Positions 2,922-17,288 of a stretch of 64,000 bases of DNA are shown in pieces. Numbering within the stretch: position 1 is the first letter of the stretch; the number at the start of each line of letters is the position of its first letter. Source of the DNA: Acidobacteriota bacterium (GTDB taxonomy: Bacteria; Actinomycetota; Acidimicrobiia; Acidimicrobiales; Palsa-688); assembly GCA_028876385.1 (NCBI GenBank), contig JAGWSF010000163.1, positions 16,921 to 80,920 on the forward strand, given 5' to 3'. The notes under the pieces were generated by a model. That model searched no databases. It was not told where the DNA came from and saw only the letters and a list, made by a program, of their open reading frames with translations. The position numbers and the translations under genes were made by a program.

Positions 2922-5900
2922 TCAGTCGCCGGCCATGTTCTCCAAGGGGGCGCTCGGCGAGACGTTTACGCTGCCCCGGAAGGTGGCGTCACCGTAGGCC
3001 TGCACGGTGCCGTCTCGGGCCAGGAGCCAGTAGCCCGCGCCGTCGAGGGTCGAGGTTATGGCCTCCCAGCTCTTGGTCCCGCCGGGGGCGTAGGCGCTGC
3101 CGTAGAACTGGGCGTCGCCGAAGGCGAACACACCCCCGTTCTGGGCGATGACCCAGTACCCGTTACCCGAAAGGTCGATCGAGATTCCGAGTACCGGCGA
3201 GGTGGCGGCGCAGATTCCGCAGAAGACGGGGAGGGAACCGTGGAACTGGGCGTCGCCGAAGGTGAACACTCCGCCGTCGGATCCGACCATGTAGTAGCCA
3301 CCGCCGTCGATAGTGGCCTCGATACCGACGATCGGGCCGACCAGCTTGATCCCGGCGAGCGACCCGAAGAACCGGGCGTCGCCGAAGGCGAACACGCCAC
3401 CGTCGCCGCTCACCAGCCAGTAGCCGTGACCGGTAGGTGTAGCGGCTATGCCCACAATCTTGGCCGAGAGACGGTACCCGTAGGCCGAGCCGTAGAACCC
3501 GGCGTCCCCGTACGAGAAGACGCCGCCGTCGGCGGTGACCAGCCAGTATCCCCGGCCCGTCGGGGTCGGCGCGATGGCCAGCACCGGGGAAGCCAGGGGC
3601 TGGTTGGCGGCCGAGCCGTGGAAGGTGGCCGTTCCTTCGGTGAACACCCCACCGTCGGTCCCGACCAGCCAGTAGCCGTCAGTGAGGTTGTCGCTGATCA
3701 CGGTGTCGGCGGTGGTGGCCGTTCCGAGCGTGCCGTGGTCGACTCCCGTGAGGGTCAGCTGGAAGTACCGCTTGGTACCGTGCGTGGTCCGGGTCAAGAA
3801 GTCGATGGTGATCGTCTCGGATGTGGGATCGAGACCCGTCGTGGCCGACGGCTCGAAGATCACACACGACGTTCCCGTCGGGCAGCTTCCCGGGTTGGCG
3901 GTGACGACCGGCGAGGCGAAGTCCACTCCGGGCACCGCACCGGTGGAGAACCCGGGCTGCCCACCGGCGGTGAAGGTCACCGTCAAGGGGACCGCGACGT
4001 CCACCGACGGGCTGCCCGGCCCCGGGCTCAGATCGACGGCGAAGTCGTGGTTGCCGGCCTGAGCCGGGACAACGACGGCGTTGTCATTGCTGGCTGGCGG
4101 CTCGACCAGGGTCACGACCGGCGCCAAAGCGGTGGTCGTTATGGTGCCCGACGCGTGGCCCGTCCCGGCCACCGATATCTGCGTCCCGTAGGCACCGACC
4201 GGTGTGGTGAGCTGCACCGTTACCGGCAGAGCCGGGAAGTAGGCGTTGTGGTCGACCGACGTCACCGTCACCGGGATGTTCACCGCTGATTGCCCGGCCG
4301 GTATGGTCACCGATCCGCTCGGGCTGCAGGTGATCACCGCCGCCGGGAGGGGGCAGCTCACCGTGTAATTCACCTGAATGGGAGCTCCTGCGACGACGGG
4401 GTTGTTCGAGCCGTCGGTCAGAGTGAGGGGGTAGTTCATGGTCCCGCCGGTGGGTAGGACGACCGAGTTCGGGCTGCCCACGGTGATGTTGAGCCCCGGC
4501 GGGGGGCTGACCTCGCTGACTATGTTCGCCACCGCTGCCGGTGCCGAGGGCAGCGCCACGTCGCCGGTGGTGGGTGAACTGAGGCTGAGCGAGACGAGGG
4601 GACCCGGGTCGAAGTACCCGTCGGTGTTCTGGACCACCTTGACCGCCAGGGTGAACGGGGAGGTACCCGACAGGGTGGTGGTCATAAGCGTGCAGGTCAG
4701 GTACGAGGGGCACGACACGTTGAACGCGCCAGCCCCGTATGTGGTGGCAGCCTGGGTGATCGTGTCGCTGGGAACGGTCAGCGGGTTACCCGATCCCGTG
4801 GCGCTGAGGGTGAAGTCAACGATGCTGCCGCCCTTGGCGATCTGTACCGGCGTTGCCGGTGGGCTGAGTGCCACGCTGGGAGCGACCAGCGTTATCGAGG
4901 CGGTCGAAGTCGTGATCGTGGCGGTGGCGGTGTCGGTGGCAGTCACGGTGGAGCCGGTCTGGTAGAGCGTGAACCCGCCCGGTGCGGTGCCGGGCGTGAA
5001 CAGGTGGATACCGGTATCGGCCGCAGTGAAGCTGTAGTTAGCCGGTAGCTGGGCCGGTGTCGACGTCGAGGTGAAGTGGACCGTACCGGTGTAGGCCGGC
5101 GTCGTGTTTCCGTAGGCGTCTACGGCGGTGACGGTCAGGGGGAAGGCGCTGCCGGCCACCTGGGTGGCGATGGGGCTCGGCGAGAAAGCGAATCCGGCCG
5201 TCGGGCCCGGGTTGACCCTGATGGAGCCCGTGTTGCCGGTGAGCGTGCTCACGATCGAGTCCGTGGCGGTTATGTTCTGGAGACCAGCCGTCTTCAAGGT
5301 GAACCCGCTGAGGGTGGCGTCGCCCCTATTGGTAGCTGTGAAGGTGTAGGAATCCGAGGGCGGGAACAAGGCGTTGTTGGTCACCGCCTGGCTGTCCGTC
5401 GAGCTGAATGTCACGGTTCCCGTGTAGTTGACGTCCACTGTGCCGTCGGCGTATTCGACCTTCAATTCCAGTGGGAAAGCTGCCCCCGCAGTGGCGGAAG
5501 TGGGAGGCAAAACGAATACCAACTGGGTCGGGCTGGTAGTGGAGACGTTCACCGCGGCGTTCCCGGTGATCGTGCTGGTGGCGGTGTCGGTGGCCGTGAG
5601 GGTCTGGCTGCCGGTGGTCTGCAGTTTGATGCCGGCGAAGCTGTACGTCCCGCTGTCGGTATTCGAGAACGTGTGCGAGCCGGGCAGCGTAGCGGAGGTG
5701 TCCGACGAAGTGAGCTGGACCGTACCGGTGTAAGCCGGGGTGAGGTTGCCGTAGGCGTCCTGTGCCGTCACGGTTGCCGCGAATGGCGTGTTCGGCGCAA
5801 TCGAGCTGGGAGCGCTGACCACCAGCGTGCTGGTGGCTCCCGGGGAAACGGTGATCGGCGTCGTCGATCCTGTGATCGAAGGGGTGGTGGTGTCGGTGAC

Positions 5901-6251
5901 GGTGACGGTCTGCGAAGCCGCGGTTGCGAGCGTCACGGCGAAGATATGGACACCGGCGTCTCCCGCCACGAAGGTGTAGTCGCCAGGTAGGACCACTTGT
6001 GTGCTGGTGTCGCTGGTAGTGAAGTGCACGGTGCCGACGTAGCCCGTGTCGACGTTCCCCAAGCCGTCCTCGGCGGTGACCGTGATATTGAAGCTCTGAC
6101 CGGCCGTGACCGGGGACGTGTATCCGCTGAGGACGAACTGGGTCGCAGCGGCCGCTGATGCTCTACCGGGCCCGGTGATCAGCCCGAAGCTGACCACCAA
6201 GAAGCCCACGATGGCGGCTACCAGCCGATGATGAGGCTGTCGTCGACGCAA
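2922..6251 (-). CDS. Large secreted surface protein: signal peptide, at least 4 Ig-like beta-sandwich repeats, central region, six C-terminal 42-aa GYWLV/DGGVF repeats
   Basis: TTG start with a GGGGAG RBS. Signal peptide MRRRQPHHRLVAAIVGFLVVSFGLITGPGRASAAAA. About 100-aa repeats of type YTGTVHFTSSD..LP..YTF...D.G.H.F...L.T.G.QT.T.TD. The C-terminal repeats are listed as a separate feature. Confidence 0.85.
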   Translation of the reverse strand: MRRRQPHHRLVAAIVGFLVVSFGLITGPGRASAAAATQFVLSGYTSPVTAGQSFNITVTAEDGLGNVDTGYVGTVHFTTSDTSTQVVLPGDYTFVAGDAGVHIFAVTLATAASQTVTVTDTTTPSITGSTTPITVSPGATSTLVVSAPSSIAPNTPFAATVTAQDAYGNLTPAYTGTVQLTSSDTSATLPGSHTFSNTDSGTYSFAGIKLQTTGSQTLTATDTATSTITGNAAVNVSTTSPTQLVFVLPPTSATAGAAFPLELKVEYADGTVDVNYTGTVTFSSTDSQAVTNNALFPPSDSYTFTATNRGDATLSGFTLKTAGLQNITATDSIVSTLTGNTGSIRVNPGPTAGFAFSPSPIATQVAGSAFPLTVTAVDAYGNTTPAYTGTVHFTSTSTPAQLPANYSFTAADTGIHLFTPGTAPGGFTLYQTGSTVTATDTATATITTSTASITLVAPSVALSPPATPVQIAKGGSIVDFTLSATGSGNPLTVPSDTITQAATTYGAGAFNVSCPSYLTCTLMTTTLSGTSPFTLAVKVVQNTDGYFDPGPLVSLSLSSPTTGDVALPSAPAAVANIVSEVSPPPGLNITVGSPNSVVLPTGGTMNYPLTLTDGSNNPVVAGAPIQVNYTVSCPLPAAVITCSPSGSVTIPAGQSAVNIPVTVTSVDHNAYFPALPVTVQLTTPVGAYGTQISVAGTGHASGTITTTALAPVVTLVEPPASNDNAVVVPAQAGNHDFAVDLSPGPGSPSVDVAVPLTVTFTAGGQPGFSTGAVPGVDFASPVVTANPGSCPTGTSCVIFEPSATTGLDPTSETITIDFLTRTTHGTKRYFQLTLTGVDHGTLGTATTADTVISDNLTDGYWLVGTDGGVFTEGTATFHGSAANQPLASPVLAIAPTPTGRGYWLVTADGGVFSYGDAGFYGSAYGYRLSAKIVGIAATPTGHGYWLVSGDGGVFAFGDARFFGSLAGIKLVGPIVGIEATIDGGGYYMVGSDGGVFTFGDAQFHGSLPVFCGICAATSPVLGISIDLSGNGYWVIAQNGGVFAFGDAQFYGSAYAPGGTKSWEAITSTLDGAGYWLLARDGTVQAYGDATFRGSVNVSPSAPLENMAGD
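2925..3680 (-). repeat. Six tandem ~42-aa coding repeats (GYWLVxxDGGVFxFGDAxFxGS), predicted beta-propeller blades
   Basis: Counted in the translation: unit lengths 43, 42, 42, 46, 42 and 37 aa. The consensus is shared with 61041..61790. Confidence 0.8.
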
Positions 6252-6471
6252 TTGTCTCCCCTTCTTCGATATCCCAGCGCGAGCATTCCCCGCTGCTCGG
6301 CGGCGGAGTATAAGGGTGCTCTCAGACGCCCTCTACCGGTCGCCCGAGCGCCGGATCCGGGCCCGAGCGACCCTTTTCAACCGGGAACTCCGGACACCTG
6401 AGAGGTCATCAGGTCCCAGATTTGCGCTTGCAAAGGGACCGCTCAGCGAGAGAAGTTGATCACCATTTACC

Positions 6472-6481
6472 TGTCCGGACA
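6472..6481. promoter_or_regulatory. Perfect 10-bp palindrome TGTCCGGACA in the long leader of the secreted-protein gene
   Basis: Seen directly in the sequence. Half-site copies TCCGGACA at 6389..6396 and TTCGGACA at 6500..6507. Related copies lie upstream of the STAND gene (10626..10747). Confidence 0.3.
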
Positions 6482-6736
6482 CCCCTGTGGCCATCGTTAT
6501 TCGGACAAACATCGGGTACGGCCTCCGAACGACCTTGTACGAGTTTCGGGAGGTCTTCCCATCTCCGTCATAAACCGAAGGCGGTCGAGAAGTTCCCCAC
6601 GCCCGGGGGGTTCCAGATTTCGGTCGCGCCGCGGTCGACCCTGCACCATATTGACGGCCGTCCGCCGAGGCATCAACGCGCCCAACGAGGACATGGCCGC
6701 GGTTGCCCGACACCTGCCCGGCACCGGCCACAAAGG

Positions 6737-6763
6737 CCCCTACCGACTCTCACCCGGTAGGAG
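6737..6763 (-). terminator. Hairpin after the STAND gene stop
   Basis: cccctaccg-actctcacc-cggtaggag forms a 9-bp stem (one G-U pair in the RNA sense) about 30 nt downstream of the stop at 6794. Confidence 0.4.
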
Positions 6764-6793
6764 AGGTACAGGGTTTGCGATTGCGGCTCAGGG

Positions 6794-9700
6794 TCAGCGG
6801 CAGGGGGCCCGGTACGGTAGACCTTGGACGTATTTGGCCCACTCGGCTCTGGTGATGGCCTGGCCTGCCGCCGAGCACAGCCGGCTCATCGCGGTCGACG
6901 GCTGGTAGTCCCACAGGTGCAGGAGGTCATCGCCTCCGCTGGAGGCGAGGACCTGGTTACCCGGGGCGAAGGTCACCACCAAAGCGGTGTCCTGGGGCGC
7001 CGTGAGGGTGTCGAGGTGTACAGGGCGGCTGACGTCGGCGATGTCCCACACCCATACCGAGTGGTCCGTGGAAGCCGCCGCCAGCGTCTTGCCGTCGGGG
7101 CTGACGGCGATGTTGAACACATAGCCGGACGGTCCTGAGAGGGGAGCCCCCAGCGGTGCGGGTCGGCTCGGGTCGGTGACGTTCCACAGGCGCACGGTCC
7201 CATCCGCGCTGCCGGCGATCAGGGTGCGCCCGTCGGGGGTGAAGGCGGTCGTGTAGGCATAATTGCTGAACCCGCCGACGGTGGACAGCAGGACCGGCTT
7301 GGCGGGATCGGAGATGTCGTAGATGCGGACCTTGGCGTCGGTCGCGGCGTCGGCCAGCAGCCTGCCGTCGGGGCTGACGGCGAAACCTAGCACCTCTCCT
7401 TTGGTGTCAGTCCGAACCGCCAGCAACCGCGCCGTAGCAGGATTGGTCACGTCCCAGAGCAGCAGTTCGCCGCCGTCGTCTCCGCCGATCATCACCCGGC
7501 TGTTGGGCGTGAACCCGAGTTGCTCTACGGTCGGCTTGGCGTCGTGCAGTGGTGGGCCGGCGGCGACCGCGACCGACGGTTTGGGCAGGGCGAACAGCTG
7601 GACCAAGGCCGATCGGTTGGCCGCGGCCAGCAGCTTGCCGTTGGGGCTGACGGCTCCGCTACCCGCCACCGGGCCGAGCCCGGCGGGCATCTCGACCGAG
7701 GCCGCCTGCGTGGGCTGCAGACTGTCGGCGGTGTCCCACACGGTGACGTCACTATGGGAGCTGTCGCTCGTCGCGTACAGATAACGGCCGCTATCGGCGT
7801 AGTCGAGGGAGTAGACGGTACCGGGCTCGCTGAGTGTCGCCTGGAGCGGCAGAGACCACAGGCGGGTGTGACCTCCCGAGTCGGCCGAGACTAGGGTCTT
7901 GCCGTCTGCGGTGTAAGCGAGGGCGGTGACCGGGTCGCTCTGGTCGAGGGTGCCGGCGGGGTCCCAGCTGCTGGTGTCGAACAGCCTGACCTGGCCGGCG
8001 GCGGTGCCGGTGGCCAGAGTCGTGCCGCTCGGGTCGAACGCCGTGCTGTCGACCTCGGACGTACCATCGTCGAGTGGGGCGTGAGCCGGTTGCAAGCTGT
8101 TCGCTCCGGTCAGGTACCACACGTGGGTGGTGTCATCGGTGGCGCCGGCGGCAAGCAGCTTGCCGTCGGCACTGACCGACACCGTCTGGTAGGTGGCTGC
8201 ACCGGTGCCCGGGATCGGGACCGGGGAGGGCTCGGCGGTGTTCCACACCACCACCGTTCCGCCCGATCCGGCGGCCACCACGGCCCCGGCCGGGGTGTAG
8301 GCGACGGCTTTGAGGGCGTCTCCCCCCGGGGAACGCCACTTGGCGGCCGCCGCAGGGTGGTGATCGGCCCCGAGGGACCAGAGTTGCAGGGTCCCGTCCG
8401 AAGACGCCTCGGCCAGGCTCCGCCCGTCGGGCGAGAACGCCAACGAGTAGACCGTCGAGCCGGGGTGGCCGACGGTGGCCACCTTGGCCGGGTGGGCGGG
8501 ATCGGCGGTGTCCCACAAGGTCACCTGCCCGGAGGTGCCCCCAGCGGCGAGTACCGTCCCGTCCGGGGAGACGGCCACGGCGAAGTCCTGATCGGTTCTC
8601 GCTCCGACGGACAGGTCCACCAGGTGGGTGGCGCCCGGAGGTTTCACGGCGTACAGGGCCACGGTGTCGTTCCCCGATTGGGCGACCGCGAGGATCCGCC
8701 CCGAAGAAGACAGCGATATGAAGAGTGGCCCGGCCGGCCCGAGCAGCCGGAACGGGACGTCCCCCGCAGTGGCGTCGAGGAGGGCGCTGCGCGCCTGCAC
8801 GGTGGGAGCGATCCGGTAGGCGGCCACCGCCAGTTGGGCGGCGAGCGACGGCGAGCGGGTCCGAAGCTGCCCGGATTCGATGGCGACTTGGCGCGACAAG
8901 GCGTCGTCACGGGCCCGGACGGCGGTTCCTCGGGAGGCCACGGCGACGCCGGCCAGGACGAAGGCGGATGCCGCCAGGATGGCTACGAGCACCAAAAGTT
9001 GCTGCGTACGATGGGTCCGCCGACGCTCGAGGCGATGCTCCTTCTCGATCTGTGTCAAAGACTCGACCACGAACGCGTTCTCGAGCCGGTTCATCTCCCG
9101 ACCCTCGCCGACGGCCTGCTCGGCCGCCTCGAGACGCGCTCCCCGCCACAGCAGCGAGGTGTCACGGCCGTGGTCGTCCCAGACCTGGGCGGCCTCCTGG
9201 ATCTGCCTGTTCAAATTGAGCCACTCGCGGTCGGACTCGATCCAGTCGGCCAGGCGGGGCCAGGCACCGAGCAGCGCCTCGTGGCTCACATGAACGGTCT
9301 CGGTGTCACCGGTCAGCAGGCGGGCGGCAATGAACCGTTCCAGGACCTGCTCGGCGATGACGTCCAGGTCGGGGTCACCAGTGTCGATCAGGTCGCTCCG
9401 GGAGGCCCGCCTGCTGGTGGGGGGGTTCTCGGAGTCGACACGGACGAGGCGGCCGAACAGCCGGCGGGCGACGTCCCGCTCGGTCGGGTCGAGCGCCTGG
9501 TAGAGCTCCTCGGCGGCGCGCAGCACTGCGCCGCGTAATCCGCCCACCGCCAGGTAGTCGCCCACCGTGAGTTGGTTGCGTCCCGCTCGCTGCCACGTGG
9601 CCAGGAGGGCGTAGGACATGAGGGGCAGGCCCCCGGGACCGTGGGCGGCCCCGGGGCGCTGCCGGGGACCGAGATCGGCGAGCACGACCTCGACCAGTCC

Positions 9701-10567
9701 GTCCTCGATAACTGCGCCGACCCTGCGGGCCGGACCGACGATGGCTTCCCGGACCTCGTCCGGGGTCATGGGACCAAGAAGTACCTGATGTTGGCGCAGC
9801 GCGGACAGGATCAACGGCTCGGCGGCCGCCGCTTCGTAGAAGTCCGACCGTAGGACCACCAGGACGGCGGTCTCCCGGCATCGTGCGGCGAGATGATCCA
9901 GGGACGCGGCACGGGCGGAATCATCGGCCGAGAGAATCTGCTCGAACTGGTCCACGATGAGGAGCGTGGCTCGGCCACCCTCGATCCGGGCCGGTTCGCC
10001 CAACTGGTCGTGACCGATGACGGTGGCCTTCCAGGACCGCGCCGCGGTGTCCAGTGAACCGGAGGCCACAGCGGGCAGTAGGGCTGCCGACACCAGCGAC
10101 GACTTGCCGGATCCGGAGGGACCGATGAGCACAGCCAACCCGCCTGGCGGATCAGAGCTGGTCAGCCTGGCGAGGCACTGGAGCAGGTCCTCGAGAGACC
10201 GTTTCCTGCCGAAGAACCGGTCTGCGTCGGCCGGCCGGTAGGGCTCGAGGCCCATGTAGGGGGAGACCTGCTTGGGGACCCGGCCGTCGGAGGACTGACG
10301 GACACGGACCAGCGCCTCCATCCACGACTCCACCTCGGCGGGGTCACTGACCCCGCACGCCTCCAGCAAGGATCGGAACAGCGGTAGCTGACGCGGACCG
10401 GGCAGATGGCGTCCGGCGAAGTAATCGCCGATGGTGGCAGTAGGAGATCCGACTTTGCGAGCGACGTCTCTAACGGTGAGCTCGGACTGCGAACGCAGCA
10501 TGCTCAACTCTTGCGCCAGGTCGTCCCGGCTATAGACCCGCGTCGGGTCGGCGTGCCTTCCTGCCAT
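6794..10567 (-). CDS. HTH(XRE)-STAND P-loop NTPase-TM-WD40 (about 14 repeats) protein
   Basis: N-terminal HTH (LTVRDVARKVGSPTATIGDYFAG). YMGLEPYRPADADRFFGRKRS lead-in, Walker A GPSGSGKSS and Walker B LLIVDQFE. TM helix LLVLVAILAASAFVLAGVAVA (about 8935..9003). Then many WD repeats (VTLWD, LQLWS, VRLWN, VWVWD, LHLWD). Confidence 0.9.
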   Translation of the reverse strand: MAGRHADPTRVYSRDDLAQELSMLRSQSELTVRDVARKVGSPTATIGDYFAGRHLPGPRQLPLFRSLLEACGVSDPAEVESWMEALVRVRQSSDGRVPKQVSPYMGLEPYRPADADRFFGRKRSLEDLLQCLARLTSSDPPGGLAVLIGPSGSGKSSLVSAALLPAVASGSLDTAARSWKATVIGHDQLGEPARIEGGRATLLIVDQFEQILSADDSARAASLDHLAARCRETAVLVVLRSDFYEAAAAEPLILSALRQHQVLLGPMTPDEVREAIVGPARRVGAVIEDGLVEVVLADLGPRQRPGAAHGPGGLPLMSYALLATWQRAGRNQLTVGDYLAVGGLRGAVLRAAEELYQALDPTERDVARRLFGRLVRVDSENPPTSRRASRSDLIDTGDPDLDVIAEQVLERFIAARLLTGDTETVHVSHEALLGAWPRLADWIESDREWLNLNRQIQEAAQVWDDHGRDTSLLWRGARLEAAEQAVGEGREMNRLENAFVVESLTQIEKEHRLERRRTHRTQQLLVLVAILAASAFVLAGVAVASRGTAVRARDDALSRQVAIESGQLRTRSPSLAAQLAVAAYRIAPTVQARSALLDATAGDVPFRLLGPAGPLFISLSSSGRILAVAQSGNDTVALYAVKPPGATHLVDLSVGARTDQDFAVAVSPDGTVLAAGGTSGQVTLWDTADPAHPAKVATVGHPGSTVYSLAFSPDGRSLAEASSDGTLQLWSLGADHHPAAAAKWRSPGGDALKAVAYTPAGAVVAAGSGGTVVVWNTAEPSPVPIPGTGAATYQTVSVSADGKLLAAGATDDTTHVWYLTGANSLQPAHAPLDDGTSEVDSTAFDPSGTTLATGTAAGQVRLFDTSSWDPAGTLDQSDPVTALAYTADGKTLVSADSGGHTRLWSLPLQATLSEPGTVYSLDYADSGRYLYATSDSSHSDVTVWDTADSLQPTQAASVEMPAGLGPVAGSGAVSPNGKLLAAANRSALVQLFALPKPSVAVAAGPPLHDAKPTVEQLGFTPNSRVMIGGDDGGELLLWDVTNPATARLLAVRTDTKGEVLGFAVSPDGRLLADAATDAKVRIYDISDPAKPVLLSTVGGFSNYAYTTAFTPDGRTLIAGSADGTVRLWNVTDPSRPAPLGAPLSGPSGYVFNIAVSPDGKTLAAASTDHSVWVWDIADVSRPVHLDTLTAPQDTALVVTFAPGNQVLASSGGDDLLHLWDYQPSTAMSRLCSAAGQAITRAEWAKYVQGLPYRAPCR

Positions 10568-10625
10568 CAGGCCCCTTGTCGATCAGTCCACCCGTCAAGG
10601 ACTGTTGCACTGTAACCAAATCCGT

Positions 10626-10678
10626 CTTGTCCGGGATAGGCCGAGAGAGTCAACTCCGCGTACGGACTTGTCCGGATA
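10626..10678 (-). promoter_or_regulatory. Two direct copies of TATCC(C)GGACAAG, 41 bp apart, upstream of the STAND gene, next to a possible -10 (TACAGT, 10609..10614)
   Basis: Plus-strand cttgtccgggata (10626..10638) and cttgtccggata (10667..10678). Further TCCGGACA at 10740..10747. Operator function is inferred only. Confidence 0.3.
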
Positions 10679-10834: not shown

Positions 10835-11608
10835 CTAGGCCGGTTTCTGCCACACCGAGACGTGGGAGCGGCTGTCGCCGGTGAAGGGCGCGCCGGTGAA
10901 GTCGGCCCAACGGTGCCGCAGGGTCAGGCCGGCCAGCCGGGCCATGAGATCGAGCTCGGAGGGCCATACGTAGCGGTAGGGGGTGGTGGTGAGCCGCAGC
11001 GATCCACCGTCGGACTCGATGTGGTGGGAGACGGCGTACTGTGACACGAGATCGACATAGTGGTCGTAGCCGACGTGGTCGGCGCCGTGGGCGAAGACCA
11101 ATGTGTCCTGGCCGGGAGGCAGGCGGCGCAGGTCGGGCACGCCGACCTCCACCACGAACGTCCCGCCGGCCTCGAGGTGCTCGGCGGCGTTGGCGAAGCA
11201 GGCGACCTGTTCGTCCATGGTGGTGAGGTTCCCGATGGTGTTGTAGACGAGGTAGACCAGCCGGAAGGACCCCGCGACCCGGGTGGTGGCCATGTCGCCG
11301 ATGGTCACGTCGATCAGGTCCCCACCGGGTTTGGCCCGCAGCCGCTCGACCATGGCCGGCGACAGCTCCACGCCCGACACGGGCACCCCGCGGGCGGCCA
11401 GCGGCAGCGCCACCCGACCGGTCCCTACGGCCAACTCCAGGGCCGCCCCGTCGCCGGCCAGGGAGGCCAGCAGGTCCACGGTCGGTCCGAGCACGCCATC
11501 GGAGAACATGTCCTGCGCCGAGCGGTCGTAGGCCGCGGCTACTTCCTCACCGAAATGGTCCTGGGGCACGCCCCTACCCTGGCATCTCCGCCGCCGTCGG
11601 GCCAGCAC
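10835..11608 (-). CDS. Class I SAM-dependent methyltransferase
   Basis: Motif I LELAVGTGRVALPLAARG, acidic motif II VSGVELS, and post-I/III motifs. The start is uncertain (GTG 11608 or an internal GTG). Confidence 0.8.
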   Translation of the reverse strand: MLARRRRRCQGRGVPQDHFGEEVAAAYDRSAQDMFSDGVLGPTVDLLASLAGDGAALELAVGTGRVALPLAARGVPVSGVELSPAMVERLRAKPGGDLIDVTIGDMATTRVAGSFRLVYLVYNTIGNLTTMDEQVACFANAAEHLEAGGTFVVEVGVPDLRRLPPGQDTLVFAHGADHVGYDHYVDLVSQYAVSHHIESDGGSLRLTTTPYRYVWPSELDLMARLAGLTLRHRWADFTGAPFTGDSRSHVSVWQKPA

Positions 11609-11623
11609 CGGGCGCCCGGCGGC

Positions 11624-12244
11624 TCACATGCGGGTCTCGAGCACTCCCACTCCGTCGCCGGAGAGGTCGACCAGTCCGGCCCGACGTCCCGACATCACCA
11701 GGACCAGCGACTCGAGGGGTCCTTCCGCGACGGGCCCGTCGCCGGCGGTCCACTTGGCGTCCCGGGCGACGAGCCGGACCCCGGCCACCCGGCGTTTGGC
11801 CTCCAGGGGGAAGCCGACCTTGTGCAGCGCGTCCGCCACTTCCACGAGGGTCTCCTCCGGAACGGCTCTCGGCACGCCGAGCGGGCGGCGAATGTCGGCG
11901 GCGTGGCAGACCGTGTCCACCAACATGTTGACCGGCTTGGCGATAGGCGGCGCCTTGTGGACCCCGACCGTCGCCCGCAGCGCGGCGAGAAGCGATTCCG
12001 GCGGGGCCGAACCGGTCACCCGAGCGTCCTCGGCCATGTACCGGTCGAAGCTGAAGCCGCTCTTCACCAGACCGACCAGGAAACGCCCCACCCCGACGCT
12101 GTTGCTGTAGGCGAGGTGGGCGACCACGTGGCGGACCTTCCACTCGGCGCAGAGCGATTGGGTGTCCCACTGGGCGGGCTCCAGATCGGCCAGATCGTCG
12201 GCAAGGGCTTTGCGCTCGGCGTCGTACCTGCCCCACGTGTCCAT
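11624..12244 (-). CDS. DinB-superfamily / mycothiol-dependent maleylpyruvate-isomerase-like protein (TIGR03083-type)
   Basis: N-terminus MDTWGRYDAERKALADDLADLEPAQWDTQSLCAEWKVRHVVAHL matches the characteristic family signature as I recall it. Confidence 0.7.
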   Translation of the reverse strand: MDTWGRYDAERKALADDLADLEPAQWDTQSLCAEWKVRHVVAHLAYSNSVGVGRFLVGLVKSGFSFDRYMAEDARVTGSAPPESLLAALRATVGVHKAPPIAKPVNMLVDTVCHAADIRRPLGVPRAVPEETLVEVADALHKVGFPLEAKRRVAGVRLVARDAKWTAGDGPVAEGPLESLVLVMSGRRAGLVDLSGDGVGVLETRM

Positions 12245-12256
12245 GTCAGCCTCCCT

Positions 12257-14296
12257 TTATGCGAGTCTGGCACAGCGCTGCCGGCGCATCACGCACCGGC
12301 GGGGCTGGCACCGCGCCGGAGGTGAGCGGGCCGCCCCCCGCTCCCACCCGTTGGCAGGAGGTGCCGGACGGCGAAAGGTCCGACACCCGGTCAGCACCGC
12401 CGCGGTGGTTCGGGCCTGGGCCGGGGAGAGCCCGGGGGCCGAGGTGGCTCGGGTCCGGGCGGCGGCGAACCCGGGAGCCGAGGTGGTCCGGGCCTGGGCC
12501 GGGGACGGCCCGGAGGCCACGCTGAGAGGCCGGGCCGAGGGGGAGGCGGACGGCTGCGGGCCCCCCGGGGCCACTCCCAGCTCCTCGAGGGCGTCGCGCA
12601 TGATGACCGAGAAAGCCGGGGCCGCGGCCTGAGCGCCGTAGTCGGGGGTGTCATCGACGACCACGAGCACCGTCACCGCCGGGTTCTGGGCCGGGGCGTA
12701 GCCGGCGAAGCTGGATACGGTGCGGCCGGCGACGTAGCCGGTGGCGCCCCGGTACTGGGCGGTGCCGGTCTTGCCGGCCACGGCGTAGGGGGTGACCGCG
12801 GCGGCGGTCCCGGTCCCCGCCGACACGACCTGCTCGAGCATGCCGGTCATCTCGGAGGCCACCTCACTCGGAACCACCCGGTGGGCGGCCGGCAGGGCGA
12901 CGGAATGGCGGTGGCCGTGGGGTCCGATCACCGCCGACACCAGCTGGGGGGCCACGTAGACCCCGCCGTTGGCGACGGTGTTGTAGGCGGCGACCATCTG
13001 GGCGGCGGTCACCGCCATCCCCTCGCCGTAGCCCATGGTGGCCAGGGTGACCGGCCCGAGGCCGCTCTGGCTGGGGATGAGCCCGGCCGACTCGCCGGGA
13101 AAGTCGACCGGGGTCACCGACCCGATCCCGTAGGAGGCCAGGTAGCGGTAGAGGGCCGGGGCGCCGAGACGCTGAACTATCTGGATGGCCCCGATGTTGG
13201 ACGACTGGGCCAGGATCCCGGTGACCGACAGGCTCTCGGTTCCGTGGTTCTCGGCGTCGTGGAGGAACGTCCCCGCCACGTCGTAGGCGTTGGGGACGGT
13301 GAAGGTCTGCTCGGGCTGGATGGCCCCGGTGGACAGCGCCGCCGACACCGTCACCAGCTTCTCCACCGAGCCCGGCTCGTACACCTCGGTGAAGGCCGAC
13401 GCCGTGGGGGCTTGCACCGGCTGGGGCGTCTGGGCCGCCGTAGGCGACGAGACGATCTTGCCCTGGGCGGTGATGCCGACCGGCAGGGCCGGTGATTGGT
13501 GGCTCCCCGCCGTCGGCATGGCCAGGTCGGCGACGGCCAGCAGGGCGCCGGTGTGGGTGTCCATGACCAGCGCCATGCCGGACTTGGCGTGGCTGGTCAC
13601 CAGCGCCTGCCCGAGCGCCTGCTCGGCCTGATACTGCAACGGCTCGTCGATGGTCAGCTCCACGTCGTCGCCGAGCTGAGGAGCCTGGTAGGCCAGCGTC
13701 CCGCCCGGCACCGGCTGGCCGCGGGGGTCGACCTCCTGCTCGATGCGCCCGGGGCGCCCCGTGAGAGTGTGGTCGTAGGCCAACTCCAGACCGGAGACCC
13801 CCTTGCCGGCGGCGTTGACCGACCCGATGAGAGGGGCGGCCAGTTGACCGGCGGGATAGGTCCGGCTCGGGTTGGTCTCGATGGTGAGGCCGGGCAGGGA
13901 CAGCTTCCGGATTTCTGTGGCGGCGGCCGAGGTGGTCCGACCGGCGAGCACCACGTAGCCGTCGTGGAGGTGTAGCTGGCCGGCCAGTTGCGAAACCGGC
14001 AGATGCAGCAGCGGTGCCAGCACGGACGCCTCGTGACCGGGATGGGCGATCAGCAGCGGGTCGGCGATGACCGTCGGGTGCTCCTCGCTGATGGCGAGCG
14101 GCCGACCGTTGCGGTCGAGCAGCGAGCCTCGCAGTCCGGGGAGCGGGGTGATCCGGGTGTCCTGGCGACGGCTGTAGGTGTTGTAGCGGGAGGCGGCGAA
14201 CACCTGGACGTCGGCCAGGCGCAGCCCGATGACCGAGAAGGCCACGGCCACCGCCACCACGACGACGAACATCCGTCGACGACCCAGGTCGCTCAT
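12257..14296 (-). CDS. Class B penicillin-binding protein (FtsI/PBP2-like transpeptidase) with a low-complexity C-terminal tail
   Basis: TM anchor MFVVVVAVAVAFSVIGL. SxxK (GSVEK), SSN (AQSSNIG) and KTGT (GKTGTA) motifs. Start chosen at MSDLGRRR (14296) rather than the ORF-track 14389. Confidence 0.85.
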   Translation of the reverse strand: MSDLGRRRMFVVVVAVAVAFSVIGLRLADVQVFAASRYNTYSRRQDTRITPLPGLRGSLLDRNGRPLAISEEHPTVIADPLLIAHPGHEASVLAPLLHLPVSQLAGQLHLHDGYVVLAGRTTSAAATEIRKLSLPGLTIETNPSRTYPAGQLAAPLIGSVNAAGKGVSGLELAYDHTLTGRPGRIEQEVDPRGQPVPGGTLAYQAPQLGDDVELTIDEPLQYQAEQALGQALVTSHAKSGMALVMDTHTGALLAVADLAMPTAGSHQSPALPVGITAQGKIVSSPTAAQTPQPVQAPTASAFTEVYEPGSVEKLVTVSAALSTGAIQPEQTFTVPNAYDVAGTFLHDAENHGTESLSVTGILAQSSNIGAIQIVQRLGAPALYRYLASYGIGSVTPVDFPGESAGLIPSQSGLGPVTLATMGYGEGMAVTAAQMVAAYNTVANGGVYVAPQLVSAVIGPHGHRHSVALPAAHRVVPSEVASEMTGMLEQVVSAGTGTAAAVTPYAVAGKTGTAQYRGATGYVAGRTVSSFAGYAPAQNPAVTVLVVVDDTPDYGAQAAAPAFSVIMRDALEELGVAPGGPQPSASPSARPLSVASGPSPAQARTTSAPGFAAARTRATSAPGLSPAQARTTAAVLTGCRTFRRPAPPANGWERGAARSPPARCQPRRCVMRRQRCARLA
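12404..12520. repeat. 3 x 39-bp tandem repeat inside the PBP C-terminal tail
   Basis: ggtggttcgggcctgggccgggga... recurs at 12404, 12443 (diverged) and 12482. It encodes 13-aa SAPG..AQARTT units. Confidence 0.7.
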
Positions 14297-14482
14297 GCGC
14301 CGGGATCGGGCAGGTCCACCCCTACGCCGCGGTCGGGACCGCCGCCGACTCTTTGCTCCGCCCACTGCCGAACACCCACAAAGGGACAATAGGGCCGGAG
14401 GGGGCGGCTGCTGCGATCACCCCTGCCCCCGCCGCCGGGCCGCGCCCCGGGATTTGGCCGGTTCCTGCCAGACTCGTCGGTC

Positions 14483-16682: not shown

Positions 16683-17288
16683 TCAGCCGGAGGGAGCCGG
16701 CGGCTCTTTGGCCGCGCTGCGGACGAGCAGGCCGGCCAGGAACACGTCGCTGATCCGCTCGGCGATGGTCGATGCCGATATGGCGCCCTCCACATGCCAC
16801 CAGCGGGTCAACCAGTTGAGGGCCCCGATGAGGGCCATGGCCGACACGAGCACGTCGGTGTCGGGTGCGAACAGGCCTTCGGCCACTCCCGAGGCGATGA
16901 CGTCCTCGATGAGGCAGACGTACTCGTGGTCCTTGGCCGCCCATTCCTCGCCGAGGCCCCGGCCGGCCACCTCGTGCAGGTAGACGGCGGCGAAGTCGTA
17001 GGTCCGTTCGAGCACCGACACGTGGATCCTGGTCACCCGGCGGACCTTCTCGCTGGCCGGCAGGTCCATCGCCGCCAGCACCCGGAGGGTGCCCAGGAGC
17101 TCCTCAGCGGGAGGGCCCACCACCGCTTCTAGGAGCTCCTCCTTGGACGAGACGTAGTTGTAGAGGCTCCCCTTGGACATCCCCAGGTTGCCGGCGATCT
17201 CGTCGAGGGATGCGGCGGCGAACCCCCTCGCCCGGAACACCTTGGCCGCGGCGGCCACGACGTCGTCCCACCGACTTGGACGTGGCAC
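16683..17288 (-). CDS. TetR-family transcriptional regulator
   Basis: N-terminal HTH: AAAKVFRARGFAAASLDEIAGNLGMSKGSLYNYVSSKEELL. Confidence 0.85.
   Translation of the reverse strand: MPRPSRWDDVVAAAAKVFRARGFAAASLDEIAGNLGMSKGSLYNYVSSKEELLEAVVGPPAEELLGTLRVLAAMDLPASEKVRRVTRIHVSVLERTYDFAAVYLHEVAGRGLGEEWAAKDHEYVCLIEDVIASGVAEGLFAPDTDVLVSAMALIGALNWLTRWWHVEGAISASTIAERISDVFLAGLLVRSAAKEPPAPSG

Follow-up and report, generated by a model that had tools for sequence, protein, structure and literature searches.

A predicted membrane-tethered HTH–nSTAND1–WD40 regulator and its candidate tandem-repeat operator

We analysed a 64-kb stretch of contig JAGWSF010000163.1 (assembly GCA_028876385.1, forward-strand positions 16,921 to 80,920), hereafter the window, and in it a gene that is single-copy in the 4.86-Mb host genome, which was assembled from the metagenome of an uncultured bacterium, and encodes a protein of 1257 residues. 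This protein joins an N-terminal helix-turn-helix (HTH) domain and an nSTAND1 NTPase to two WD40 propellers, with one predicted transmembrane (TM) helix in between. On balance we favour the view that it is tethered to the membrane and switched by ATP, and that it regulates its own gene as well as neighbouring surface-protein genes. The evidence comes from the conservation of the helix, from the different amino acid compositions on its two sides and from a tandem DNA repeat that accompanies the HTH-bearing members of the family.

Domain plan and predicted membrane topology

The gene is an uninterrupted open reading frame (ORF) in a window with a G+C content of 64–76%, and its G+C content at third codon positions (GC3, 0.84) is similar to that of the real genes around it. 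More than 5,000 homologues of the protein are present in the databases, and the orthologue group comes mostly from metagenome-assembled genomes (MAGs) of Acidimicrobiales and Solirubrobacteraceae. Its parts are as follows, with residue numbers here and below referring to the 1257-residue product.

6794–10567, minus strand: whole gene, in the order HTH_31, nSTAND1, TM helix, stalk, double WD40 propeller and Cys-pair tail (ORF, Pfam, GC3).
10325–10522, minus strand: XRE-type HTH (HTH_31), residues 16–81 (Pfam PF13560, E 3.5e-11).
9158–10261, minus strand: nSTAND1 NTPase module, residues 103–470 (PF20703, E 3.4e-96).
10097–10123, minus strand: Walker A motif GPSGSGKSS, residues 149–157 (sequence and alignment).
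9941–9964, minus strand: Walker B motif LLIVDQFE, residues 202–209 (sequence and alignment).
8936–8998, minus strand: predicted TM helix LLVLVAILAASAFVLAGVAVA, residues 524–544, after an Arg-rich juxtamembrane stretch (Kyte–Doolittle and Hessa scales, conservation).
8765–8935, minus strand: helical stalk, residues 545–601 (best conserved region of the protein, mean pairwise identity 65%; three helices in the AlphaFold2 model).
6893–8764, minus strand: two tandem WD40 propellers, about 14 blades, residues 602–1225, predicted to be extracytoplasmic (Pfam, AlphaFold2, Foldseek, composition).
6797–6892, minus strand: C-terminal tail LC..AG..IT..EW..YVQG.PY..PC with the Cys pair C1231/C1256 (conservation).

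Only one strongly hydrophobic segment was found in the protein. At residues 524–544 the mean Kyte–Doolittle value over 19 residues reached 2.79 (next best 1.36) and the summed Hessa scale gave −2.87 kcal/mol (next best segment +6.5). The segment consists of 21 uncharged aliphatic and small residues and is directly preceded by RLERRRTHRTQQ. A segment with a Kyte–Doolittle value of at least 1.8 lies at the same place in 120/120 homologues of 43–82% identity, and this constancy of position shows that the features are not due to chance. Across these 120 sequences, the 15 residues on the N-terminal side of the helix contain on average 6.2 Lys and Arg residues, and the 15 on the C-terminal side contain 2.4. 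The helix was also present in six of seven distant homologues from Micromonospora, Nocardia and Streptosporangiaceae, the N-terminal domains of which vary, and in about 31 of 38 metagenomic nSTAND1 loci at 22–40% identity. Its sequence identity is just 48%, with the hydrophobicity retained. The Arg-rich stretch in front of it (residues 510–523; 8999–9040, minus strand) keeps one or two Thr residues and reads RRRTRRTQQ in most homologues; that these Thr residues might be phosphorylation sites, given the kinase, PP2C and FHA genes that adjoin the locus (see below), is pure speculation.

We compared the composition of the two halves of the protein with that of ORFs called in the host genome, in which the ORFs without a hydrophobic segment served as the cytoplasmic set. 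Cytoplasmic ORFs (n=791) contained 17.1±3.5% Arg, Lys and Glu (R+K+E) and 22.0% Ser, Thr, Asn and Gly (S+T+N+G), and ORFs with a signal-peptide-like start (n=88) contained 8.8±4.9% and 29.8% respectively. The corresponding values were 19.4% and 20.0% for residues 1–520 of the protein, and 7.2% and 29.4% for residues 560–1257. An R+K+E content of 7.2% falls at the 1.1 percentile in the cytoplasmic set and is close to the median of the set with signal-peptide-like starts; because this protein is the only WD40 protein of the host genome, WD40 composition and exported composition are inseparable within that genome. The same split was seen in 112 homologues (R+K+E 19.3% compared with 9.0%). The exported-type composition after the helix supports an N-in/C-out orientation, which is also the sole sensible bitopic topology because the P-loop NTPase and the HTH need ATP and DNA. 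We consider this predicted topology highly likely.

The region beyond the helix has further features that bear on its location. Many WD40 and other propeller families of Pfam match residues 600–1245, and the AlphaFold2 (AF2) model of residues 546–1257 (predicted local distance difference test score, pLDDT, 89.9; predicted TM-score, pTM, 0.85) contains three helices, about 53 strands, corresponding to roughly 14 blades, and a two-helix tail. The best Foldseek matches of this part were the tandem double propellers 2ymu, the Apaf-1 propellers and Aip1. The two Cys residues of the tail are 25 residues apart and are kept in 103 of 112 homologues, in a post-helix part that has two to four Cys residues altogether. 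Even homologues of 25–35% identity from Micromonospora, Nocardia and Streptosporangiaceae (C-termini in loci L012, L013, L014, L016 and L018) end their WD40 region with a C-x(24-26)-C motif that contains a conserved Trp and a P-Y/F; this motif carries no annotation. Such a Cys pair would fit a disulfide bond in an exported domain.

We also considered that the helix might not span the membrane. The protein would then resemble MalT or AfsR as a cytoplasmic STAND regulator, either soluble or peripheral, with its WD40 sensors inside the cell and the helix used for oligomerization or peripheral anchoring. All characterized STAND proteins sense intracellularly according to the framing of a recent survey (PMC13581612), no experimental topology is known for any nSTAND1 protein, and AF2 places the juxtamembrane region, the hydrophobic segment and the stalk in a single unbroken helix (residues 494–569) that resembles a coiled-coil stalk. 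A run of 21 uncharged residues with a clearly negative Hessa sum is, however, hard to reconcile with a soluble protein, and so are the one-sided Arg cluster of all 120 homologues and the sharp change in composition exactly at the helix. In addition, the helix varies in sequence yet keeps its hydrophobicity, as a membrane anchor does, and the conserved Cys pair is found only beyond it. We regard a non-spanning helix as very improbable.

On the N-terminal side, HTH_31 was matched with 43.7 bits (cut-off 27), and HipB models or entries of NCBIfam and the PDB matched the same domain weakly. In the AF2 model the HTH is made of five helices (residues 14–27, 32–39, 43–51, 58–70 and 76–93; pLDDT about 90). 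It is among the best conserved parts of the protein, with 58% mean pairwise identity in 109 orthologues and 30% of its columns at least 90% conserved. The nSTAND1 profile was matched from position 1 to 378 of its 379 positions (323.6 bits, cut-off 27.1), and the motifs PYxGL, FFGR, GxSGxGKS, hhhhDQFE, LRxDF, G-LPLLS and SHEALL-WP were found. In an alignment of 13 sequences that extends down to 33% identity, the Walker residues G149, S151, G152, G154, K155, S157, D206 and E209 were invariant; the other invariant columns included P103, Y104, G106, L107, G120, R121, R240 and D242, as well as G312, L314, P315, L316, S318, H429, W436 and P437.

AF2 modelling, for which the alignments held 13 sequences, all from the retrieved loci, gave a mean pLDDT of 85.9 and a pTM of 0.72 for the N-terminal 575 residues. 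The model has the HTH at residues 14–93, a P-loop domain at 143–263, a helical domain at 269–357 and a winged helix at 361–427, followed by more helices. The tripartite STAND core of P-loop, helical and winged-helix domains is present, and the plan of the class is completed by an N-terminal effector (HTH_31) and by C-terminal repeats (about 14 WD40 blades). Single-sequence and profile searches of the PDB found nothing but P-loops and HipB-like HTHs, with no STAND relative of solved structure, and an NCBIfam search of the protein gave nothing specific. We know of no structure for any member of the nSTAND1 family.

An earlier note, written from the letters of this DNA, had proposed an N-terminal XRE-type HTH, a STAND-like P-loop NTPase with the GPSGSGKSS and LLIVDQFE motifs, one strongly hydrophobic helix with a positively charged N-terminal flank, and WD40 repeats enough for two propellers. 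All of these were found, including a full-length profile match to the NTPase region. Its placement of the propellers outside the cytoplasm is supported in silico by the exported-protein composition and the conserved terminal Cys pair.

A tandem direct repeat upstream of the gene

Comparison of the upstream regions of eight orthologue loci revealed a conserved cis element, TYCGKACAAvnTCGKACR, a direct repeat in tandem with a period of 10 bp that at times has a weaker third copy upstream. Position weight matrices (PWMs) were built from these loci in a leave-one-out manner. A search for related loci with the single protein returned only eight, and an alignment-based metagenome scan yielded mostly distant relatives without an HTH, which served as a negative control. 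The elements around the gene are as follows.

10659–10676, minus strand: candidate operator TCCGGACAAG-TCCGTACG, tandem 10-bp direct repeat, 92–109 bp upstream of the ATG (PWM).
10626–10638, minus strand: proximal half-site-like copy TATCCCGGACAAG, just upstream of a −10-like hexamer TACAGT at about 10609–10614 (read from the sequence; kept in L005).
6526–6543, minus strand: second operator-like site CTCGTACAAGGTCGTTCG, upstream of the gene for a secreted 1109-aa protein (PWM).
6389–6481, no strand assigned: further TCCGGACA-type half-sites, namely the TGTCCGGACA palindrome at 6472–6481 and TGTCCGGA at 6389–6396 (sequence; 6389–6396 partly kept in L005).

Of 11 orthologue loci, 10 carried the repeat, at a distance of 43–170 bp before the gene. 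In the leave-one-out scans, the top match of each 17–64-kb locus was the site just upstream of the gene (8/8 loci), 57–109 bp before the start codon or, for L007, 151–168 bp before it on the other strand. In the window, the top leave-one-out match was 10659–10676 with 23.3 bits; this training site was also the best match in the 4.86-Mb genome. The second-best match of the genome, 6526–6543 (18.6–19.0 bits), was outside the training set. On both strands of the genome only these two sites reached 18 bits, and both flank the gene. The second site has an equivalent in L005, the locus of an 82% identical orthologue (11921–11938, 21.5 bits). Comparison of the window with L005 also showed that conservation of the promoter region begins at the repeat and continues to the start codon; the TACAGT hexamer found there may be a promoter −10 element.

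Loci on which the matrix had not been trained behaved similarly. L111 had a single match in 19.9 kb (26.8 bits), 43–60 bp upstream of the gene, and L113 had two identical sites of 25.2 bits that flank the STAND gene and adjoin surface-protein genes, one before a divergent 1661-aa FG-GAP/TIG/He_PIG gene and the other just past the STAND gene, in front of an 871-aa He_PIG gene. Distant HTH-bearing homologues of 34–41% identity carried the repeat upstream as well (L048, 25.3 bits; L085, 21.5 bits; L022, 24.9 bits). In about 608 kb of control nSTAND1 loci the sole match of at least 18 bits was that of L022, which proved to be HTH-bearing. The 16-nt pattern occurred once in the 4.8 Mb of a complete genome from the same order, directly upstream of the HTH-nSTAND1 gene of that genome. 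Since the HTH-nSTAND1 gene is the only gene common to all repeat-bearing loci and its HTH is well conserved, we take the repeat to be the predicted operator of this HTH, an assignment that we find reasonably likely.

The earlier note had singled out TCCGGACA sites for tests of binding by the HTH. The 8-mer corresponds to half of the conserved tandem repeat tied to HTH-bearing genes. By itself it was not enriched in the window (six copies with 3.4 expected; 15 of 100 shuffles gave at least as many). The gaps on either side of the gene hold five of the six copies, and this clustering and the longer tandem repeat are significant. The lack of enrichment of the 8-mer, together with the position of the repeat near where promoter elements would be, could suggest that the repeat belongs to the promoter itself or is recognized by another factor, with the HTH binding elsewhere or making protein contacts; this appears very unlikely given that the repeat is absent from HTH-less nSTAND1 loci, is unique or nearly so in two genomes, and has no partner gene common to all loci except the one with the well conserved HTH.

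Neighbouring genes and candidate targets

The second operator-like site lies in front of a large secreted-protein gene that opens a gene array resembling the Esr pathway. Esr is an epibiont-sensing pathway established experimentally in Schaalia (Wang et al., bioRxiv 2026; PMC13622651). Its parts (EsrA–G) are a filament/propeller protein, a MoxR, a vWA protein, a transglutaminase, a kinase, a phosphatase and an FHA protein; the pathway is reported to be essentially confined to the class Actinomycetes, and its authors describe the step from signalling to transcription as still unknown (PMC13622651). The two features next to our gene are as follows.

6252–6793, minus strand: non-coding gap of 542 bp that contains the second site; a block conserved in L005 lies in its last 110 bp (GC3, Rfam, L005 alignment).
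2922–6251, minus strand: likely target gene, encoding a secreted protein of 1109 aa that has Ig-like repeats and, at its C-terminus, a GYWLV/DGGVF module (signal peptide, repeats), first gene of a co-directional Esr-like array.

Past the window edge, on the same strand, the array goes on with genes for a Ser/Thr kinase (752 aa), a PP2C, an FHA protein (648 aa), a second kinase and a 274-aa protein, and then for a 2141-aa Big_9/fn3/cadherin protein, a MoxR, a DUF58 protein and a transglutaminase. It covers window positions 2922–6251 and positions 1277–19746 of L010 (G000:C110), all on the minus strand, which amounts to roughly 22 kb in one direction. Pfam recognized nothing in the N-terminal 440 residues of the 2141-aa protein. 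The array thus matches the Esr parts list, with a secreted Ig-repeat filament protein, Ser/Thr kinases, a PP2C, an FHA protein, a MoxR, a DUF58 (vWA-like) protein and a transglutaminase, and the candidate operator precedes such an array both in the window and in L007. The described pathway, in contrast, has no STAND or HTH-WD40 protein, and our gene is a neighbour only. This Esr-like cluster may extend the known range of Esr, because the nearest named relatives of the STAND protein are Acidimicrobiales MAGs.

The gene arrangement of L005 is the same as that of the window. The STAND gene of L007 (Acidiferrimicrobium, 50% identity) is transcribed divergently from an operon of PP2C, FHA, kinase, 234-aa and 2078-aa genes that includes Big_9, and the repeat faces this operon. 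In L008, L040, L041, L042 and L043 the STAND gene is divergent from a gene for a secreted protein of 472–1431 aa. Large secreted proteins are adjacent to or divergent from the gene in most of the 11 loci, and these contexts show that the recurring neighbour is a large secreted or surface protein.

The 1109-aa protein ends with six GYWLV/DGGVF units (2925–3701, minus strand). This module is shared by the neighbouring proteins of four loci (the window, L005, L008 and L042), with 55–58% identity over 91–137 residues. It caps secreted Ig-repeat proteins that are otherwise different (also L008 3463–7758 and L042 5629–9792). No Pfam family matched the module, which gave just a weak hint of RCC1_2, and it is probably an undescribed propeller-like surface module.

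Further observations concern the DNA around the gene. The last ~110 bp before the 1109-aa gene (6252–6360, minus strand) are almost identical with L005 12120–12232, and the rest of the gap has diverged; the conserved block holds TATACT, a GAGCAGC...GCTCG stem-loop and the GAAGAAGGGGAGA ribosome-binding region. Two ORFs of 132 and 112 aa called in the 542-bp gap were rejected as genes on the basis of their GC3 (0.62–0.63 compared with 0.84–0.90) and the absence of Pfam matches. Rfam matched neither the two intergenic regions nor the gene.

Upstream of the STAND gene (10835–14389, minus strand) there are tightly spaced genes for a class B penicillin-binding protein, an MDMPI/DinB-like protein and a SAM methyltransferase. 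L005 has the same three genes, with two additional opposite-strand genes (276 and 164 aa, no Pfam match) between these three and its STAND gene. Toxin–antitoxin modules (RHH/PIN, MazE/PIN and HTH/HipA) were seen beside 5 of the 11 orthologue loci (L007 17587–18218; L008 2018–3272; L043 13881–14491; L112 14150–15728; L113 7478–7891), and in L113 a PIN gene lies between the candidate operator and the STAND gene. In L041 (15066–15560), a tandem DNA repeat was probably miscalled as a 164-aa gene of VVVVLGT repeats.

Proposed mechanism, related systems and significance

STAND NTPases are held off by a repeat sensor until a ligand permits nucleotide exchange and oligomerization. In the mechanism that we propose for the present protein, the N-terminal 520 residues with the HTH and nSTAND1 would be cytoplasmic, helix 524–544 would cross the membrane, and the stalk, the propellers and the Cys-pair tail would be outside. 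The outer propellers would bind a ligand or cluster, and a signal would pass through the stalk and the TM helix, upon which the cytoplasmic nSTAND1 modules might exchange nucleotide and, by analogy with MalT and AfsR, oligomerize. HTHs spaced by the oligomer could then occupy successive 10-bp repeats (two to three copies of TYCGKACAAS) on one face of the DNA. These repeats would be the ones in the promoter of the regulator gene itself and in the promoter region of adjacent genes that encode large secreted or surface proteins; in the host genome, the predicted target would be the 1109-aa gene heading the Esr-like kinase/PP2C/FHA/MoxR/transglutaminase array. Release by proteolysis is no more than conceivable.

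Two groups of characterized regulators resemble this scheme in part. MalT of E. coli and AfsR and the large SARPs of Streptomyces act as ATP-dependent oligomers that bind tandem direct-repeat operators, and the candidate operator described above is likewise a tandem direct repeat, with a 10-bp period. MalT and AfsR, however, are wholly cytoplasmic and have LuxR-type or OmpR/SARP-type DNA-binding domains and SUPR or TPR sensors. The present protein has an XRE-type HTH, an nSTAND1 module and a membrane helix between the switch and the WD40 sensor, with no Pfam match to LuxR, SARP or OmpR domains or to an NB-ARC or MalT-type NTPase. In regulators of the ToxR/CadC type, a single membrane helix connects a cytoplasmic N-terminal DNA-binding domain to an extracytoplasmic sensor within one polypeptide, a layout that the predicted topology would fit. 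ToxR and CadC, on the other hand, have an OmpR-type winged HTH, a small periplasmic sensor and no NTPase, whereas here HTH_31 is joined to about 430 residues of a putative ATP-driven switch before the membrane. Because it differs in DNA-binding domain, NTPase family and membrane span, the protein belongs to neither group.

The architecture itself is not new. In Figure 2-source data 1 of Kaur, Burroughs, Iyer and Aravind (eLife 2021; PMC8195603), 'HTH+nSTAND1+TM+BetaPropeller', the same four modules in the same order as in our protein, is listed 42 times and 'nSTAND1+TM+BetaPropeller' 278 times, in agreement with the earlier note, which had described such architectures as known from comparative genomics. 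The main text of that study discusses nSTAND1 as a conflict-system NTPase; the architecture is found in the tables only, and topology, operator, regulon and a function of the HTH form are not proposed. The STAND survey in Nature (PMC13581612) treats STANDs as intracellular sensors without mention of membrane-spanning forms, and cites MalT and AfsR as non-immune STANDs. The kind of protein studied here has thus been catalogued and left unstudied, and what we add is a candidate operator, a candidate regulon and quantitative support for the topology.

The association of nSTAND1 with counter-invader systems, in which it was defined (PMC8195603), raises the question of whether the protein is an immune (conflict) receptor. 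Such a receptor would detect invaders such as phages or epibiotic bacteria at the cell surface and use its HTH as the effector that switches on a defence programme; the topology and the DNA-binding steps would be those proposed above, and only the nature of the ligand and the biological role would differ. An Esr-like cluster adjoins the gene in the window, L005 and L007, and Esr has been shown experimentally to be an epibiont-sensing pathway (PMC13622651). The toxin–antitoxin modules near several orthologues (PIN/RHH, MazE/PIN, HipA) would also be in keeping with such a role. However, the propellers are not hypervariable, with 44–50% pairwise identity among homologues compared with 50% for the NTPase, the genomes carry one copy of the gene each, and the protein has no enzymatic or pore effector. 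The PADLOC defence models gave only local matches of 30 residues in the P-loop (mad3, E 6e-5; mad8, E 7e-3). We consider a dedicated immune function unlikely.

Several observations weigh against the regulator model that we prefer. The low R+K+E content of the propellers could partly be a WD40 trait and not a sign of their location. The nearest Foldseek matches of the N-terminal model were Orc1/Cdc6 and other AAA+ proteins with a lid and a winged helix, at low TM-scores (0.38/0.53), and no solved STAND was among the top 50 for the NTPase model. The untrained orthologue locus L112 had no repeat in the PWM scan. A consensus scan gave no sigma-70-like promoter, nor a terminator, and the second site is about 215–290 bp from the likely promoter and start of its target, which is far for a simple activator. 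Finally, the gene context is only partly conserved, with Esr-like genes adjoining in 2 independent lineages among the 11 loci.

STAND/NLR proteins are seen in the literature as intracellular, and a branch of more than 5,000 members appears to place its sensor outside the membrane. The HTH form is the easiest entry point to this branch because its output can be read directly. The predicted 18-bp tandem-repeat operator, unique to the locus in two genomes, offers a binding or reporter assay and a ligand screen, and the candidate regulon in the host genome is a filamentous surface-protein gene heading an Esr-like cluster. Tentatively, nSTAND1 proteins might form a large unrecognized class of transmembrane NLR-like receptors that sense the outside of the cell, of which the HTH form would be the simplest, a one-protein pathway that leads from an outer double propeller by way of an ATP-driven oligomerization switch to a tandem-repeat operator, and in some lineages perhaps the transcriptional controller of Esr-like clusters and filamentous surface proteins.

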